IMG/VR virus record: IMGVR_UViG_3300036719_006047
Span: 64,001-128,000 of that record
Length of the DNA: 64,000 nt
Reading direction: 5' to 3' (one strand)
From: a virus
Notes under the pieces: model-generated
Told to the model about the DNA's origin: nothing
What the model saw: the letters and a program-made list of their open reading frames with translations, nothing else
The model's database searches: none
Part shown: piece by piece, positions 1 through 41,904 of the stretch
Layout of the letters: each line of letters begins with the position of its first letter
Numbering within the stretch: the first letter of the stretch is position 1
Position numbers and translations under genes: made by a program

Positions 1-7
1 CCAGCGG

Positions 8-712
8 GTGTTCTTCGGCCACACGGCCGAGGACACGACCCAGTACCTCTGGGTGTTCAAGGCGGGGGGCGCCATCGAGGCGTTCCCCGGGCGCGACCCG
101 AAGTCGCTGCCCTCGGTCGAGGGGGTCGAGGGCCGCATCCTCGTCCCCCTCACGACGGACAACTTCGGGGTCCAGCCCGGGGCGCGCGGCTCCACGCTCG
201 TGGCCACCGAGGCGGCCCGCGGCCGCCGCCGCGACGAGCTGCGCGGCCTCGGCACCCCCGCCCCCGCGCCCGCCCCCGCCCCCGTGACCGGCACCCCCGC
301 CGCGGGGCTCGCCTTCGGGGTGCCCCGCGCCCCCACCGCCGCCTCCACGAAGGTCGCCGCGCCGCCCCCGGCGCCCCCGGCGGTCAAGCCCGACGACCCC
401 CGCGCCGTCGGGCTCTACAAGGGCACGCTGACGATCTCCGCGGCCATCGAGGGGCTCACGTCCGCGGAAATCGTGGCCCTCACGGCCGCGGTGAGGGCGC
501 TCAAGGAGCGCCACGCGGCCGAGGAGGCGGCGATGGCCGCCGCCGTGGACGGGCTGAAGCAGCTCATGGGCGAGATCCCCGGCGTCGTGACGCCCGTCGC
601 GCCGTCCGCCCCCGTGGCTCCGTCCGCCTACGACGACGCCACCGCTGACGCCGACGCCGACGACGACATCGGCCTCGACGACGACGAGGCCCCCGTCGCC
701 GGCGTGGGGTAG
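8..712 (+). CDS. Hypothetical protein, Pro/Ala-rich with acidic C-terminus; probably 5'-truncated by the window edge
   Basis: Frame is open to the window edge; very high GC3; PAPAPA linker and Asp-rich tail. Confidence 0.75.
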   Translation: MFFGHTAEDTTQYLWVFKAGGAIEAFPGRDPKSLPSVEGVEGRILVPLTTDNFGVQPGARGSTLVATEAARGRRRDELRGLGTPAPAPAPAPVTGTPAAGLAFGVPRAPTAASTKVAAPPPAPPAVKPDDPRAVGLYKGTLTISAAIEGLTSAEIVALTAAVRALKERHAAEEAAMAAAVDGLKQLMGEIPGVVTPVAPSAPVAPSAYDDATADADADDDIGLDDDEAPVAGVG

Positions 713-718
713 CCCCCA

Positions 719-752
719 GGCAGGGGTGAGGGTTTAGGCCCTCGCCCCTGCC
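719..752 (+). other. 14-bp GC-rich hairpin after ORF1 (possible terminator or processing site)
   Basis: GGCAGGGGTGAGGG-TTTAGG-CCCTCGCCCCTGCC, one G.U pair; no U-tract follows. Confidence 0.55.
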
Positions 753-769
753 CGGTCCGTGACCGTCAC

Positions 770-939
770 GGGCCCGTGCTGACTTCACGCGAGATCGCGT
801 GAGGTCATCTCGGCCTCGTGGCCGTGCGCTCAAGCTCGTGGTGAGCGAGAGCACAACCCAGCGGAGTGTCTACGCGCCCGCGGACACTTCGCATCACGTA
901 CGTCACGTACGTGTTTGAGCGGGCATAGGAGCTACCATG
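770..939 (+). repeat. ~170-nt structured leader repeat, copy 1, ending in RBS + ATG
   Basis: Near-identical to 1298-1458 and 1844-2020; ends TTGAGCGGGCATAGGAGCTACCATG. Confidence 0.95.
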
Positions 940-1284
940 ACCTACACCGAAACCCTCGCGGAAAAGGCGGTTGAGGGCCTGGGCATCGGCTTTGGCGGGA
1001 CCTCGCAAGTCTCGCCCGACGTGCTCGGGCAGGCCCTCGCGGGCCAGATCAACAACGGGGGATGGGCGCTCATCGCGCCCGTCTCCCACTGGCAGGACGT
1101 CCTCTTCCGCGCGTGGGAGGGGGATGGGGATTACTGGGAGGACGACGATCGTGAGGCGGCGAAGGCCGCATTCGTGGCGGGGTTCGAGGCTACAATCCTC
1201 GCGCTGGGCCTCAGCCTCGAAGAAGTGTACGCGGCGCAACCGCCGCCTCCGGCCGAGCCCCCTCAGCCTGGGGATCATTGGTAG
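937..1284 (+). CDS. Hypothetical protein (cassette 1, behind leader repeat)
   Basis: AGGAG RBS, ATG, 115 aa. Confidence 0.8.
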   Translation: MTYTETLAEKAVEGLGIGFGGTSQVSPDVLGQALAGQINNGGWALIAPVSHWQDVLFRAWEGDGDYWEDDDREAAKAAFVAGFEATILALGLSLEEVYAAQPPPPAEPPQPGDHW

Positions 1285-1297
1285 GCGAGGGGCCTGC

Positions 1298-1458
1298 GGG
1301 CCCGTGCTGACTTCACGCGAGATCGCGTGAGGTCATCTCGGCCTCGTGGCCGTGCGCTCAAGCTCGTGGTGAGCGAGAGCACAACCGGAAGAAGTGTCTT
1401 TGCGCCCGCGGACACTTCGCATCACGTACGTGCTTGAGCGGGCATAGGAGCTACCATG
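1298..1458 (+). repeat. ~170-nt structured leader repeat, copy 2
   Basis: Direct repeat of 770-939; lacks one CACGTACGT unit. Confidence 0.95.
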
Positions 1459-1836
1459 ACCGACAAGCCACATCTGTGGCTGGTGGATCCAGCCATCACA
1501 GAGGAGGACCCGTGCGACGAGTCCTCTGAAGAGTCGGAGGAGGACTACGAGCAAGCAAACGAGCTTGCTCGGGGCATTTTCATGCACCTCACGGGTGCCC
1601 TGGGGCACGCCAAGTACGTGTCTCTGTCCCTGCTGGGTCGGGCAGTCGCGACTCGCGTGCTGCTGGGGGAGCAGCTTGCTCCTCGTCTCCTCGCGTTCGC
1701 GTGCGCGTTGAGGTGGCTGGAAGCCCGGCACGGGGAAAGCCCCGTCTCGGACGAGGACTACGCGTTCGCGTCCGACACATGTCGGGCGGCAATGGTCGTG
1801 TTCCTCGCGGAGCACGACGTCACCTCCAGAAGTTAG
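1456..1836 (+). CDS. Hypothetical protein (cassette 2)
   Basis: AGGAG RBS, ATG, 126 aa, acidic N-terminus. Confidence 0.8.
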   Translation: MTDKPHLWLVDPAITEEDPCDESSEESEEDYEQANELARGIFMHLTGALGHAKYVSLSLLGRAVATRVLLGEQLAPRLLAFACALRWLEARHGESPVSDEDYAFASDTCRAAMVVFLAEHDVTSRS

Positions 1837-1843
1837 GCCAGGG

Positions 1844-2020
1844 GGCCACGAGGCCGAGATGACTTCACGCGATCTCGCGTGAGGTCGTCTCGGCCTCGTC
1901 GCCGTGAGCTCAAGCTCGTGGTGAGCGAGAGCACAACCGGAAGAAGTGTCTACGCGCCCGCGGACACTTCGCATCACGTACGTCACGTACGTGTTTGAGC
2001 GGGCATAGGAGCTACACATG
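1844..2020 (+). repeat. Structured leader repeat, copy 3, with extended 29-bp hairpin and inverted loop
   Basis: GGCCACGAGGCCGAGATGACTTCACGCGA-TC-TCGCGTGAGGTCGTCTCGGCCTCGTCGCC, then the same downstream body as copies 1 and 2. Confidence 0.95.
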
Positions 2021-2932
2021 ACCGCGCTTTACACTGACCCCTACGCAGACCCCTACTCGTTCGCCAAGGCCGCCGGCTGGGAGGGGCAGATTGTGCCCTT
2101 CCCGGGCGAGGACCACTTCCGCACCGTCACGGTGCGGGACGAGACCGTGACGGTCCTCGTCGCTCTCGGGCTCGGGGGCTACTACGCCCCCGTGAACGAC
2201 AAGGGGCAGATCCTCGTCCGGCCCCCCCAGGTGGGGGACCTGCTCCACTACCTCCCCGACATCCTGGGCTGGATGGGCCAGCCCACCAAGCTGCGCCCGG
2301 AGGCGCTGCTGACCCCCGGCTGGGCCAAGACCTGGCCCGGCAAGTACACGGACCAGAACCTTCGGGAGGTCGAGGAGCGGCGGGCCGCCCGTGAGGCGAA
2401 GGCGGTGAAGCCGACCTCCGCGGCGTCGGCCCCCGCCGCCCCGTCCCCGGCCCAGGTCGGTCCGGTGAAGGCGAAGGTGAGCTTCGGCTCGCCGTCGCCT
2501 TCCTCCTCGTCGCCCGCGCTCGACAGCGACTCCGGGCCGTTCTCGGTCGAGGGAACCATCGACATGCACGACACCGGCGTCGTGCAGCCCTCGGTCGAGG
2601 CCACCGCGCCGCCGGCGCCCGCCGCCCCCGTGAAGGCGAAGGTGAGCTTCGGCTCGCCGTCGCCCTCCCCCTCGCCCTCCTCCCCGGCCGCCCCTCCTGT
2701 CCTCGACCCCATCGTGGACGAGAGCGGGCTGTGGTTCCTGCGCCGCGCGGAGATCACCTGGGACCAGTGGTTCCAGGAGGTCGTCGCCTTCGCGGAAGGC
2801 GAAGGCAACCCGTCGCTGATCGCGCACGGGCTCGCCGCGGGCCTGCCGCTCGTGCGGCCGACCGACCCGAACCGGGTCGATTTCCGCAAGAGCAAGTTCA
2901 CCGCCCCGCTCGGGCGGCCCCCGGGCTCGTAG
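2018..2932 (+). CDS. Hypothetical protein with disordered Pro/Ser/Ala middle and duplicated VKAKVSFGSPSP motif (cassette 3)
   Basis: AGGAG RBS, 304 aa; 35-nt internal repeat at ~2465 and ~2629. Confidence 0.8.
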   Translation: MTALYTDPYADPYSFAKAAGWEGQIVPFPGEDHFRTVTVRDETVTVLVALGLGGYYAPVNDKGQILVRPPQVGDLLHYLPDILGWMGQPTKLRPEALLTPGWAKTWPGKYTDQNLREVEERRAAREAKAVKPTSAASAPAAPSPAQVGPVKAKVSFGSPSPSSSSPALDSDSGPFSVEGTIDMHDTGVVQPSVEATAPPAPAAPVKAKVSFGSPSPSPSPSSPAAPPVLDPIVDESGLWFLRRAEITWDQWFQEVVAFAEGEGNPSLIAHGLAAGLPLVRPTDPNRVDFRKSKFTAPLGRPPGS

Positions 2933-2940
2933 TGACCTTG

Positions 2941-2980
2941 CCGACTGTCAATGCTTGAGCGATCGAGCATTGACAGTTGG
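2941..2980 (+). other. 18-bp hairpin overlapping the -35 box of the tRNA promoter
   Basis: CCGACTGTCAATGCTTGA-GCGA-TCGAGCATTGACAGTTGG, two G.U pairs. Confidence 0.7.
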
Positions 2981-2998
2981 CACAGCCCGCGATACCCT
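2970..2998 (+). promoter_or_regulatory. Sigma70-type promoter of the tRNA operon
   Basis: TTGACA (2970-2975), 17-nt spacer, TACCCT (2993-2998), 12 nt before the first tRNA. Confidence 0.7.
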
Positions 2999-3010
2999 GC
3001 GGGTACTTGA

Positions 3011-3084
<74 letters not shown>

Positions 3085-3096
3085 CTTCTTTGACAT

Positions 3097-3167
3097 TGGG
3101 GCGTAGTGTAATGGTAGCACAAGGGGTTTTGGCCCCCTTGGTCCGGGTTCGAGCCCTGGCGCCCCAG
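3097..3167 (+). tRNA. tRNA-Gln(UUG)
   Basis: Acceptor TGGGGCG/CGCCCCA; anticodon arm AGGGG-TTTTGGC-CCCCT. Confidence 0.9.
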
Positions 3168-3171
3168 TTTT

Positions 3172-3390
3172 CGTTGGTGCTCCAACGCCCCGTGTGCGCG
3201 GGGCTCCCCTTCGCGGGAAAAGGTGCTTGCTAACCACGCACACGGCGGCAAGAAGCTGGGCGGTCGCTGTCGGTCCGTTTCCAGGGTGGACGCCGTAACA
3301 CTGTCCCACGGTAGCGTGTGGGGCGGATCACGTGCGAACGAGGTCGCACGACGTTTGCCAGCCTTCCTCGTCCTTGCTGAAAAAGGCTGG
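3172..3390 (+). ncRNA. Candidate ~220-nt structured ncRNA with two potential kissing-loop pseudoknots
   Basis: At least 6 hairpins; loop TGTGCG (3193-3198) complements CGCACA (3237-3242); loop ACGAGG (3338-3343) complements CCTCGT (3366-3371). Confidence 0.6.
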
Positions 3391-3395
3391 AATTT

Positions 3396-3479
3396 GCGAG
3401 AGTGGTGGAATAGGTAGACGCGCCGGACTCAAAATCCGGTGACCGGAAGGTCGTGCGGGTTCGATTCCCGCCTCTCGCA
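3396..3479 (+). tRNA. tRNA-Leu(CAA)
   Basis: Long variable arm; CCGGA-CTCAAAA-TCCGG. Confidence 0.95.
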
Positions 3480-3483
3480 CTTC

Positions 3484-3556
3484 GCTGGCGTAGCTCAACT
3501 GGCAGAGCAGCGGTTTTGTAAACCGCAGGTTATCGGTTCAAGTCCGTTCGCCAGCT
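3484..3556 (+). tRNA. tRNA-Thr(UGU)
   Basis: GCGGT-TTTGTAA-ACCGC; acceptor GCTGGCG/CGCCAGC. Confidence 0.95.
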
Positions 3557-3563
3557 TCTTTTC

Positions 3564-3636
3564 GGGGACGTAGCTCAGTTGGGAGAGCACCTGCTTTGCA
3601 CGCAGGGGGTCACGGGTTCGAGTCCCGTCGTCTCCA
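3564..3636 (+). tRNA. tRNA-Ala(UGC)
   Basis: CCTGC-TTTGCAC-GCAGG; G3.U70 pair in acceptor GGGGACG/CGTCTCC. Confidence 0.95.
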
Positions 3637-3644
3637 TTTTGTTT

Positions 3645-3764
3645 GGCCCTCGCGGTGAGGGTAGGGCAGCGTAGCTCATGAAAGGCTTGACCATCGCCAT
3701 CTCCGTGGTTGGTCAGAAGCCCCTCCGAAGCCCTATCCGTTTGACCGTGAGCCCCGCGAGGGCC
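3645..3764 (+). ncRNA. Candidate ~120-nt rod-shaped ncRNA with internal bubbles
   Basis: Nested stems GGCCCTCGCGG/CCGCGAGGGCC, GGTAGGGC/GCCCTATC, GGCT/AGCC, TGACCA/TGGTCA. Confidence 0.6.
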
Positions 3765-3768
3765 TTTT

Positions 3769-3843
3769 GCCGACATAGCTCAGTGGTAGAGCAGGCGGCT
3801 GTTAACCGCCTTGTCGCAGGTTCGATCCCTGCTGTCGGCGCCA
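3769..3843 (+). tRNA. tRNA-Asn(GUU), CCA encoded
   Basis: GGCGG-CTGTTAA-CCGCC; ends GGCGCCA. Confidence 0.95.
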
Positions 3844-3848
3844 CTTCA

Positions 3849-3922
3849 GGGGCGGTAGCTCAGTCGGTCAGAGCACCCGGCTCATACCCGGTATGTCGTG
3901 GGTTCGAGCCCCACCCGCCCTA
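3849..3922 (+). tRNA. tRNA-Met(CAU), elongator type (Ile2 not excluded)
   Basis: CCGG-CTCATAC-CCGG; paired 1-72 position argues against initiator. Confidence 0.85.
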
Positions 3923-3928
3923 CAGTTT

Positions 3929-4012
3929 GCGAGAATGGTGGAACCGGTAGACGCGCTGGATTTAAAATCTGGTGACCGCAAGGTCGTGCGGGTTCGAGCC
4001 CCGCTTCTCGCA
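3929..4012 (+). tRNA. tRNA-Leu(UAA)
   Basis: CTGGA-TTTAAAA-TCTGG; long variable arm; close paralog of Leu(CAA). Confidence 0.95.
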
Positions 4013-4019
4013 CACATTC

Positions 4020-4092
<73 letters not shown>

Positions 4093-4119
4093 CACTTTAT
4101 TCGAGGCCAAGGAGGCCGC

Positions 4120-4638
4120 ATGATGTATGCAGGTATTGGGTCGCGGCACACCCCCGCAGAGATGTGCGCCTACATGGCGCAGCTCGCATCTTTCCTGGAG
4201 AGCAAGGGCCTCATCCTTCGCTCCGGCGGCGCTGCTGGCGCGGACCTTGCGTTCGAGGCCGGGGTCAAAGACCCCACAAAGAAGGTCGTTTACACGGCCC
4301 ACAGCCGTTTGTCTGCCGAGGACTGGAAGTACGGGTTCGATCACGTCTCGTGGTTCCACCCGGCTCCTGACAAGGTTCTCGGCAGCAAGTGGGGCCGAGT
4401 CATGGCGCGCAACACTTTCCAGGTGTTGGGCACTCCGTCCGAGCAAGCCGCAGGCCAGCCCCACAGCGCTTTTGTGGTCTGCTGGACGCCCGACGGGGCC
4501 GAGAAGGTCACCACCCGTGCTACCGGAGGCACGGGACAGGCGATCCGGATTGCCGCTCACTACGGTATTCCGGTGTTCAATCTCCGAGTTCACGATGCTG
4601 TCGATCGTCTCGACAGCTTTCTCGCCAGCCGTGCTTAG
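4120..4638 (+). CDS. SLOG-superfamily (DprA/YspA-like) phage protein
   Basis: YAGIGSR..TP, LRSGGAAGAD.AFE, VVCWTPDG, GGTGQAIR.A...IPVFNL motifs. Confidence 0.8.
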   Translation: MMYAGIGSRHTPAEMCAYMAQLASFLESKGLILRSGGAAGADLAFEAGVKDPTKKVVYTAHSRLSAEDWKYGFDHVSWFHPAPDKVLGSKWGRVMARNTFQVLGTPSEQAAGQPHSAFVVCWTPDGAEKVTTRATGGTGQAIRIAAHYGIPVFNLRVHDAVDRLDSFLASRA

Positions 4639-4647
4639 GAGGCACCC

Positions 4648-4893
4648 ATGAAGTATCCCATGAAGTATGTCGAGTTGACGCATGTCTTGAGTCAGGACGG
4701 TACCAAGTTCTACCACCCGATGTTGGTCCCCGTCGGGCAGTTCTCGGTCGTGGGGCCGCCCCCGGAGCAGGGTGGTTGTCTGATCATCCTCAACGGCTCG
4801 AACACGGGCCTCGTGATCGACGAGCCTTACGAGAAGGTCTGCGAGATCATCTCCTCGCTCTGCGACGTCACCCGTCTGCCCGGCGAGGAGTGA
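4648..4893 (+). CDS. Hypothetical protein
   Basis: GGAGG RBS, 81 aa. Confidence 0.75.
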   Translation: MKYPMKYVELTHVLSQDGTKFYHPMLVPVGQFSVVGPPPEQGGCLIILNGSNTGLVIDEPYEKVCEIISSLCDVTRLPGEE

Positions 4894-4896
4894 GCT

Positions 4897-5256
4897 ATGG
4901 TCGAGAAATACTCGAAGATCATGCAGGACCCCGCCTGGATTGCCTTCGCCTCCATGGCGGAGCGATTCAACCAGGTCGCGCTTCGACTGGAAAGCGGCAA
5001 GCCCTCCTCGATGGAGGTGTTCTCGACGCACCTCAACGAGGCGGTCGCGCCGCTGAAGATGGTCACTCCCAGCCCGAAGGTCGCGGCCATCTTCAAGAAG
5101 GCCGCCAATCGGGCCGCCGCCCAGTTGACGCTGGCCGCCCAGACCTACGGCATGGGTCCGTTCGGGGCCCAGCATCACTGGTGTGGAGCGATGCGTGCCG
5201 ACTTGCAGCGCCTCGCAACCGACCTCTACTTGCAGCTCGCGGTCGAGATCGAGTAG
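4897..5256 (+). CDS. Hypothetical protein
   Basis: 119 aa, tightly coupled, high GC3. Confidence 0.75.
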   Translation: MVEKYSKIMQDPAWIAFASMAERFNQVALRLESGKPSSMEVFSTHLNEAVAPLKMVTPSPKVAAIFKKAANRAAAQLTLAAQTYGMGPFGAQHHWCGAMRADLQRLATDLYLQLAVEIE

Positions 5257-40538: not shown

Positions 40539-41323
40539 AAGAAGGCGATGCCATCACGCACTTCGACAACTCTTTGCTAAACCCAGAACTGGAGGGAAAT
40601 CCGAAATACTGCTTCCGGATTCGAGTGATCGGCAACAACACAGAGCTGAGCACACAGCACGTAGAGAACACGGTCAACAACGCGCTGCGGCTTGCCTGCG
40701 AAGAAGACAAGCTGCCCGCTTCTGTGTCAGAGAAGCTTGAGCCGGTTTACACGCTGTTGGTGCTGAACCGGTTGAGACGAACAAGCAAGCGGGACTGGCA
40801 GTTGTCGCGGTTTGTTGAAAGCTGTCGCCTGTTCGCCAAGGTGAGCTCCATTTACGCCCTGAAACAGGTAAAGCCAAAAATGAGAGTGTCACCTGCTCTG
40901 TTTGTGTTGGACGTGTTTGACGCATCAAAGGTCTTCAGCGCGTCAGAGCTGATCGCTTTTTCTTCTCCCACAGGACTTGTTGTCCCCGGTAGTGAGATTG
41001 CAGGGCTTGCGTCATACGTGCTGCAGAGGCTCGAAAACCCCGACGATGTCAGATTTAAGCGGCGAGATGAGATACTGGTCCGAGTGTGCGCGGAAGCTCT
41101 GATTGCGACAAGGAAGCCGAAGCAAGAAGGTGTAACCGCCAAAGAAGCAGTAGCACTCGGCAAGAAAATCGCAGCGCACCGCACTCGGCGGCTGAAGATG
41201 GAAAGGCTGCAGAAGAACTTGAGAGAAGCACAAAGAACCCTAGCAAAGCTGTCCCGAGATAGCCGCAACGATCTCAAGCAAGACATGAAAGACTTCTACA
41301 CAAAGGGGACTCGCAAGAGATGA
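40535..41323 (+). CDS. Hypothetical protein with basic coiled-coil C-terminus
   Basis: ATGA overlap, 262 aa. Confidence 0.75.
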   Translation: MKEGDAITHFDNSLLNPELEGNPKYCFRIRVIGNNTELSTQHVENTVNNALRLACEEDKLPASVSEKLEPVYTLLVLNRLRRTSKRDWQLSRFVESCRLFAKVSSIYALKQVKPKMRVSPALFVLDVFDASKVFSASELIAFSSPTGLVVPGSEIAGLASYVLQRLENPDDVRFKRRDEILVRVCAEALIATRKPKQEGVTAKEAVALGKKIAAHRTRRLKMERLQKNLREAQRTLAKLSRDSRNDLKQDMKDFYTKGTRKR

Positions 41324-41904
41324 ACGACCGCACGTACCGCTTCCCTCTGAAAAAAGGCGCGAAGCTCAAGGAAGACAACGGCTACGCTCTGTTGGCGGGA
41401 TTGACCTCCATCGCTCCGTTCCTTCACGGCAGGGAGAGTGTCCAGATCGCACCTATCGCGGGATCTCGCGTCAGCAGCGGTGTTCTCGTGACTGACGCAC
41501 GAAGCAAACTGCAGGTGAGAGGCATCACCCGGGAAGAAGCTGAACTGCTCCAGAAAAAGACTTTTCACGTTTCGGGAGAGGAGGTTGAGACTGGCCTGTT
41601 CCAGGAGGTGAAGTTTGCGTTCTTCCCCTGCTTGGCTTCTCGCCTTGTGATCTTCCGAGATGTGTTCAGCAAAGAGCAGTTCATCGAGAAGGTCAAAGAA
41701 GTTGCAAGGTCAGGCGATGTGGAGCTGGGGCGCCGGAGAGTGTTGACTCTCAAGAACAACAGCATGATCGGCTTCAGCGTGGTTTTGAAAGGACTGAAAG
41801 AAGAAGATTCGATCCGACTTCAGGCGGAAGGGATGGGCAAGTTCACGTCGATGGGTTGCGGGGTGTTTCACCACTTCCGACCGAACAGCACTCAACTGCG
41901 ATAA
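41320..41904 (+). CDS. cas6: Solitary Cas6/Cmx6-like protein (type I-B/Myxan family)
   Basis: DNGYALL (family DHGYALY), LHG..., LASRLV, LGRRRVL.LK...IGFSV, LQAEGMGKFTSMGCGVF (GhGxxxxxGhG loop). Confidence 0.85.
   Translation: MNDRTYRFPLKKGAKLKEDNGYALLAGLTSIAPFLHGRESVQIAPIAGSRVSSGVLVTDARSKLQVRGITREEAELLQKKTFHVSGEEVETGLFQEVKFAFFPCLASRLVIFRDVFSKEQFIEKVKEVARSGDVELGRRRVLTLKNNSMIGFSVVLKGLKEEDSIRLQAEGMGKFTSMGCGVFHHFRPNSTQLR

Follow-up and report, generated by a model that had tools for sequence, protein, structure and literature searches.

We analysed a 64,000-nucleotide (nt) stretch of viral DNA, hereafter the window, that comprises bases 64001-128000 of the linear 136,910-bp IMG/VR virus record IMGVR_UViG_3300036719_006047 (estimated completeness 85%). 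Near its start lie three copies of a structured leader, each of which ends in the ribosome binding site of a different orphan open reading frame (ORF), named A, B and C. We observed a modular anatomy of this repeat, constraint on its core, pairing specific to the plus strand, concerted evolution of the copies and mosaic divergence along the region. The reading that we favour, with about even confidence, takes the repeat for a composite intercistronic expression cassette that has no promoter, acts in plus-strand RNA and also provides homology for recombination.

Anatomy and conservation of the leader

A repeat finder returned one family of three direct copies of 169 nt, and a MAFFT alignment of the three copies showed near-identity from about column 57 through the ATG (Table 1). 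A block of 31 nt is identical in 3/3 copies, where shuffled sequences expect 0 matches. The sequence-only reading of this DNA had described three leaders, each followed directly by AGGAG-N5/6-ATG of an unrelated ORF, and this description holds: the 3′ end of every copy reads GGGCATAGGAGCTAC(A)C-ATG, that is AGGAG, 5 or 6 nt and the start of the ORF, and no similarity was detected in the ORF pairs compared (A with B, and C with ORF0, the first gene of the island). The stems that it listed are all present, and the leader folds beat shuffled sequences (z = -5.6, -2.9 and -7.4 for copies 1, 2 and 3). Searches of the whole 136,910-bp record with BLAST and a covariance model yielded no further leader copies.

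Each copy consists of two modules. Module 1 is a variable 5′ hairpin of ~28 pairs, rich in G.U, that sits 4-50 nt past the upstream stop codon; module 2 is a 114-nt core that extends from CGCTCAAG to the ATG. In copy 3, the left hairpin arm exactly matches the reverse complement of the right arm found in copies 1 and 2, the loop reads TC in place of GA, and the letters of this 'flip-flop' hairpin point to a strand switch or template switching, an inversion or cruciform processing. In the closing helix of the core, copy 2 has a G-C pair where the other copies have G.U, and a G.U-compatible difference between copy 1 and copies 2 and 3, reported earlier from the letters, is real (alignment column 39/64).

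A metagenome scan recovered a single divergent relative of 1,743 nt, L020, and all of our comparisons between genomes rest on it. Its genes occur in the same order as in the window (A′-B′-C′). The cores of window and L020 are 95-97% identical when the 9-nt deletion of window copy 2 is set aside; in the coding DNA, identity falls to 85% in B, 79% in C and 55% in A, and the synonymous divergence (dS) is 0.34, 0.32 and ~1.3 (saturated), respectively. Because the cores keep this identity at a dS of 0.32-0.34 in B and C, the core evolves ~8 times more slowly than silent sites, and the edges of conservation coincide exactly with the module borders. The core is under strong constraint, and the sequence-only reading is supported as far as it describes a shared structured leader before unrelated orphan genes, which acts from the plus strand. 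A functionless remnant of a recent tandem duplication of the intergenic region would also account for three copies that are all adjacent and for a gene order that is the same in one relative. The unrelated downstream genes, the strength of core conservation relative to synonymous sites across genomes and the exact start and stop of conservation at the module borders make such a remnant the least probable explanation that we considered.

The comparison with L020 also separates the two modules. In L020 copy 2, which precedes ORF B′, an intrinsic terminator (11-bp GC stem, 6-nt loop and TCTCTTTTTCT) replaces module 1, and identity to the window resumes exactly at CGCTCAAG. L020 copy 3 has a long irregular hairpin, as do window copies 1 and 2. 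The element thus combines a variable 3′-end hairpin for the upstream gene with a constant leader for the downstream gene.

The copies evidently evolve in concert within each genome, by gene conversion. Columns 1 and 68 of alignment A3 each show one base throughout the window copies and another in every L020 copy that covers the column; the G of column 68 occurs in the partial L020 copy as well, and L020 cores 2 and 3 are 99% identical. Within the copy 3 hairpin of the window, the left arm arose as a copy of the right arm. Divergence of the genes is uneven. Cassette A, counted from its ATG up to where the next core begins and thus with its 3′ hairpin or terminator, is saturated against L020 (third-position identity 41%, protein identity 42%) between two nearly identical cores, as compared to a dS of ~0.33 for B and C, which lie beyond a conserved core. 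This mosaic fits homologous recombination inside the cores. An earlier proposal that the repeat is a recombination joint through which gene cassettes are gained and shuffled therefore survives in part. Concerted evolution, the module 1 swap and the saturated cassette between cores speak for it; on the other side, the A-B-C order is kept in the one relative, where we found no different downstream ORFs and no gene gain or loss, the record (85% complete) contains neither a tyrosine (PF00589) nor a serine (PF00239) recombinase, and no attC core site (RYYYAAC or GTTRRRY) occurs on either strand of any copy.

None of ORFs A, B and C has a Pfam or PHROG match, and for ORFs B and C the ESM Atlas offered no lead either. 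Compared with their L020 orthologs, these three genes have ratios of nonsynonymous to synonymous divergence (dN/dS) of 0.35-0.66, from which we conclude that ORFs A, B and C are real genes. Near-identical contigs exist, and 41 contigs are on record with the ORF B protein. Within ORF C, a duplication of 84 nt (window 2426-2674, 80% identity) encodes VKAKVSFGSPSPS in a Pro/Ser/Ala-rich linker, and low-complexity Pro/Ala stretches in ORF0 resemble this linker.

Table 1. Coordinates of the leader copies, their modules, the island genes and other features in the window.
Feature	Position	Strand	Remarks
Leader copy 1, full element	765-939	+	repeat-finder copy 767-935
Copy 1, module 1	765-822	+	long irregular hairpin; inner 12 bp GACTTCACGCGA/TCGCGTGAGGTC
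Copy 1, module 2 (core)	826-936	+	closing helix GCUCAAGC/GUUUGAGC; invariant block 828-858
Copy 1, other parts of core			stem GAGTGTC/GACACTTC; two TCACGTACG units 894-911; Shine-Dalgarno AGGAG 927-931
Leader copy 2, full element	1293-1458	+	repeat-finder copy 1295-1463
Copy 2, module 1	1294-1350	+	hairpin of the copy 1 type
Copy 2, module 2 (core)	1354-1455	+	one 9-nt TCACGTACG (ACGT) unit deleted; invariant block 1356-1386
Leader copy 3, full element	1840-2020	+	repeat-finder copy 1847-2015
Copy 3, module 1	1844-1903	+	near-perfect palindrome, 29-nt arms
Copy 3, module 2 (core)	1906-2017	+	Shine-Dalgarno-to-ATG spacer 6 nt; invariant block 1908-1938
ORF A	937-1284	+	115-aa orphan; L020 ortholog 42% protein identity; dS saturated
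ORF B	1456-1836	+	126-aa orphan; L020 ortholog 78% protein identity; dN/dS 0.35
ORF C	2018-2932	+	304-aa orphan; L020 ortholog 70% protein identity
ORF0, 3′ part	1-712	+	259 aa; ATG 67 nt before window start; first gene of the island
GC-rich strong hairpin	719-752	+	right after ORF0 stop; no U tract; -39.1 kcal/mol for segment 713-765
Hairpin, 20-nt arms	2939-2982	+	end of the island, after ORF C
tRNA array, nine genes	3011-4093	+	downstream of the island
Cas6/Cmx6 homolog	41320-41904	+	TIGR02807 103.6 bits (NCBIfam cut-off 98.85); PF09559 2.9e-32

RNA structure and mode of action

In the four copies of module 1 that were compared, the 28-pair helix is kept in 89% of the cells of the comparison. 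Seven pairs changed on one side are still paired, and one pair is compensatory, with A-U in window copy 3 and U-A in L020 copy 3 where window copies 1 and 2 have U.U. The plus strand is predicted to fold better than the minus strand by 5.4-7.6 kcal/mol in 4/4 hairpins, because many module 1 pairs are G.U, and by 1.7-4.0 kcal/mol in 4/5 cores. As modelled, then, the structure works in plus-strand RNA. For the core, RNAalifold predicts a closing helix of GCUCAAGC with G(U/C)UUGAGC that can be extended by CGUGGUGA and UCACGUACG, a small hairpin and a stem GAAGUGUC/GACACUUC, and leaves the tail with the Shine-Dalgarno sequence (SD) free. Four of the five substitutions in core stems stay paired through G.U and the fifth breaks a terminal pair. 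The mean unpaired probability of the SD in the predicted ensembles is 0.3-0.8, that is, mostly unpaired.

This accessibility bears on a further proposal of the sequence-only reading, a shared translational switch. Such a switch would respond to a ligand, to a protein or to temperature by a change between one fold that hides the SD and another that exposes it. Two competing folds exist, a P4 hairpin formed by two ACGT units and the extended closing helix with CGUGGUGA, and folding the copy 3 core alone pairs its 5′ AGCUC with GAGCU of the SD region. The pairing that sequesters the SD, however, needs a base present in copy 3 only. An alternative pairing of GCCCG with CGGGC has the right letters in copies 1 and 2 but is absent from copy 3 and from every minimum-energy fold shown, and in L020 copy 2 the GCCCG sits inside the terminator stem. 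The SD is mostly unpaired in all ensembles, there is no conserved alternative pairing, no covariation is seen among the five core sequences and Rfam gave no match even at E = 10 apart from the chance hits described below. The switch is therefore not supported, and we hold it to be very unlikely.

We infer that the genes are co-transcribed, that the transcript is processed or terminated at module 1, and whatever influence the leader has on translation. In the cassette model that we favour, rightward transcription of the island would start at a promoter before ORF0. Module 1 would act as a terminator or attenuator, or else as an RNase III-type processing site, and in this way form or protect the 3′ end of the cistron upstream of it. 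The core would fold into a closed multi-helix domain that leaves AGGAG-N5/6-AUG unpaired and would give three fast-evolving early orphans a uniform 5′ untranslated region (UTR) and ribosome binding site, so that the folded 5′ UTR insulates translation from whatever coding sequence lies upstream. Secondarily, the long near-identical cores may act as homology for gene conversion and for the replacement of a gene plus its hairpin between cores, as in the promoter-early stem-loop (PeSL) cassettes discussed below.

Several observations weigh against this model. Termination at module 1 of the window is uncertain because its hairpins have no U tracts, and the canonical terminator in L020 would make read-through or a promoter in the core necessary. 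The ACGT units that the leaders have in common with a tract of 9-nt period upstream of the island could have a role at the level of DNA. Approximately 12 nt of the invariant 31-nt block (GAGAGCACAACC) are predicted to be unpaired, an invariance that structure alone does not explain and that hints at a sequence-specific binder. The core has 0 compensatory pairs among five nearly identical sequences, one relative included, and a shuffle control did not separate its pairing counts from chance. Five sequences this similar leave the covariation test of the core without power; the predicted core structure is plausible, and covariation gives no proof of it.

Because of the unpaired invariant nucleotides, the shared ACGT motif and period and the L020 terminator, we retain, as an unlikely alternative, a promoter or operator function of the DNA itself. 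The repeat would then be a true PeSL-type terminator-promoter whose core holds a non-canonical promoter, with the host polymerase redirected by a phage factor, and the TCACGTACG units would be operators for the protein that also binds the upstream ACGT tract of 9-nt period, comparable to the stoperators of Cluster A mycobacteriophages. Placed directly before a core, the L020 terminator implies that transcription either reads through or starts anew. Of the 7 occurrences of ACGTACGT in 137 kb, 6 are within the upstream tract and the leaders, which have the same 9-nt period. The invariance of the 31-nt block, which is partly unpaired, and the position of the island just past a divergent intergenic region fit a DNA-level role as well. 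Against it, a promoter consensus scan of the region found 0 sigma70-type -35/-10 sites, and even the minimal TANNNT is not common to the copies: its sole occurrence overlaps the start codon, and it is missing in copy 3. The record encodes no phage RNA polymerase, T7-like or multisubunit, and no sigma70 region 2. The substitutions that stay paired as G.U in the RNA would put A.C mismatches into a DNA palindrome or into the opposite strand, and copy 2 lost one ACGT unit while its gene was retained.

Another candidate binder is encoded by the phage itself. The record contains a solitary Cas6/Cmx6 homolog (Table 1), and the leaders could be its binding or processing sites, at which it would release or mark cistrons in the manner of Csy4 sites in synthetic operons. 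The homolog scores above the NCBIfam cut-off, yet the phage genome has no CRISPR array. In four Myxococcota genomes the Cmx6-linked repeats end in a 4-bp hairpin, UU and GAGCAC, and the invariant block of the leader, GCUC-GUGGU-GAGC-GA-GAGCAC, has the same layout. The arrays adjacent to cmx6 in these genomes (L047, L051, L052 and L053), our reference for Cmx6 substrates, share the repeat 3′ half GATGCC-N4-GGCGTTGAGCAC. Speaking against such a role, a covariance model of these repeats gives leader copy 3 just 12.4 bits (E 1.4) and nothing significant in the phage, the likeness amounts to 6 nt and a small hairpin and was found after many motifs had been inspected, and the His that six Myxococcota Cmx6 proteins carry in the (D/L)HGY motif is replaced by Asn in the phage protein. 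We found no Cas6 relatives on other viral contigs with which to look for co-occurrence. The homolog may bind RNA or serve as an anti-CRISPR decoy; anti-CRISPR activity has been shown for viral cas homologs (bioRxiv 10.1101/2023.06.24.545427), which counts against a role at the leaders. That the invariant hairpin-GA-GAGCAC block is a cognate Cas6/Cmx6 RNA site, so that a CRISPR processing protein was recruited to the operon RNA of the phage itself and binds and possibly cuts it to give the orphans an insulated uniform 5′ UTR, has in our view only a slight chance of being correct, and the same slight chance applies to the leaders as Cas6 sites in general.

Database searches and the surroundings of the island

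An Rfam and covariance-model check suggested in the sequence-only reading assigned the leader to no family and detected no copies beyond those already known. At gathering scores Rfam matched tRNAs only, and up to E = 10 it added only chance hits to microRNA-like hairpins. Run on the entire phage record and on 14 loci of distant DprA relatives, the core covariance model recovered only the known copies, and these relatives have no comparable repeated leaders. INPHARED gave no match to window 700-2100 (blastn) or to ORF C (tblastn), exact-pattern scans of IMG/VR with four leader motifs gave 0 matches, and ORF C had none among viral contigs. A 20-mer of the invariant block had 15 matches in GTDB, in high-GC genomes and mostly in actinomycetes, all of which we judged to be chance (20-27 nt; the longest a 43-nt stretch with 84% identity).

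Two other interpretations of the leader were rejected. A GTG frame of 36-39 codons runs through each leader as a candidate upstream ORF; it has no SD, and its start is lost together with module 1 in the copy that has the terminator instead. The 3′ end of the leader resembles the 5′ region of tRNA-Arg (3004-3020), and neither ARAGORN nor Rfam supports a tRNA-like origin. At the 5′ end of the tRNA, CTTGAGCGCCCATAG resembles TTTGAGCGGGCATAG of the leaders. Of the boxA and boxB elements of lambda nut, the leader has only CGCUC of boxA, and the U-rich part is missing.

The leaders lie in a compositional island of 65-80% GC that extends from ~300 nt before the window start to ~2,950, as compared to ~55% GC in the rest of the genome. 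All four of its genes (ORF0, A, B and C) have a strong hairpin on their 3′ side. ORF0 has no leader copy in front and no Pfam or PHROG match. The hairpin that ends the island overlaps a possible TTGACA-N17-TACCCT, ~15 nt before tRNA-Arg, that as read from the sequence is a plausible promoter for the nine-tRNA array.

On the 5′ side of the island are a leftward array of pentapeptide-repeat genes, a gene for a DUF3987 primase-like protein, a 238-aa orphan and then the ACGT-rich tract. The pentapeptide-repeat row (PF00805, up to 3.6e-93) occupies positions 553-5137 of locus L005 (genome ~56.5-61.1 kb). The ACGT/CpG-rich tract of ~290 nt (L005 7445-7730, genome 63445-63730, 271-556 nt before the window start) has a 9-nt period of ~20 units with the consensus CGTACGTGT, lies between the leftward 238-aa orphan and the rightward island, and shares the ACGTACGT/CACGTACG motif with the leaders. 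It could be an origin or a regulatory hub. Elsewhere the phage carries RIIA, DprA-like, SLT and HNH genes. It is distant from cultured phages, with a top RIIA identity of 27-32%.

Comparison with known phage and mobile elements

The closest parallel in organization is with the PeSL cassettes of T4-type phages, which are repeated intergenic modules (Arbiol et al. 2010, PMC2839356; Comeau et al. 2014, PMC4122927). Both combine a stem-loop, which in PeSLs acts on upstream transcription and here is predicted to do so, with the SD and start codon of a downstream gene, both stand in front of ORFans in a plastic region, and PeSLs offer homology for modular exchange, as the cores here may. Each leader ends with the SD and start codon of its ORFan, and the region is variable; cassette A and one hairpin module were replaced or have diverged between cores, with the order unchanged in the one relative. 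PeSLs differ in that they are defined by a strong sigma70-type promoter and an AT-rich upstream region, where our scan found 0 promoters and where the leader is GC-rich with a structured 114-nt core. They also occur in ~50 copies per genome, as compared to three here, and gene gain or loss was not seen here in the comparison with one relative.

Module 1 can be compared with the T7 early operon, which has intercistronic RNase III processing sites. In both, related long irregular hairpins lie between successive early cistrons of one transcript, in our case a putative one, and by analogy module 1 would leave a protective 3′ hairpin upstream and a defined 5′ end downstream, here predicted from sequence. 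A double-stranded hairpin of at least ~20 bp between cistrons, as in T7, is present in the 28-pair helix. The T7 sites are not followed by a conserved leader of 114 nt.

The start-associated sequences (SAS) and extended SAS (ESAS) of Cluster K mycobacteriophages consist of the 13-bp GGGATAGGAGCCC with ≤2 deviations, 3-7 bp before the start codon, in 11-19 dispersed copies per genome (Pope et al. 2011, PMC3203893). As in our leaders, an asymmetric motif around AGGAG precedes the ATG of unrelated non-structural genes, inverted repeats lie upstream and ATAGGAGC is common to both. The best ungapped match in the leaders, GGCATAGGAGCTA, has the same spacing but 3 deviations, and there are 3 adjacent copies in place of the 11-19 per Cluster K genome. 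Departures between the ESAS arms lend no support to pairing of the RNA, whereas the departures here support it.

Co-oriented orphan ORFs separated by similar structured repeats also recall the attC sites of integrons. We found no RYYYAAC/GTTRRRY sites and no integrase here, and the repeat differs from attC in carrying the ribosome binding site of the next gene. The leaders likewise do not match the consensus of Cmx6-linked CRISPR repeats, even the best of them having a low covariance score, and the genome has no regular repeat-spacer array.

Most probably, then, the leader is related to known phage regulatory cassettes but has no promoter. The core, conserved well beyond silent sites and without a match to an RNA family, is a candidate for a new cis-acting phage RNA element and might be used as a natural insulator part in polycistronic expression. 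The island also offers a small and clean example of copies that evolve in concert and of cassettes replaced between regulatory repeats. If our reading is correct, portable expression cassettes that drive gene exchange extend beyond the AT-rich, promoter-bearing PeSLs of T4-like phages to a GC-rich, RNA-structured and promoter-less form in an unrelated uncultured phage.

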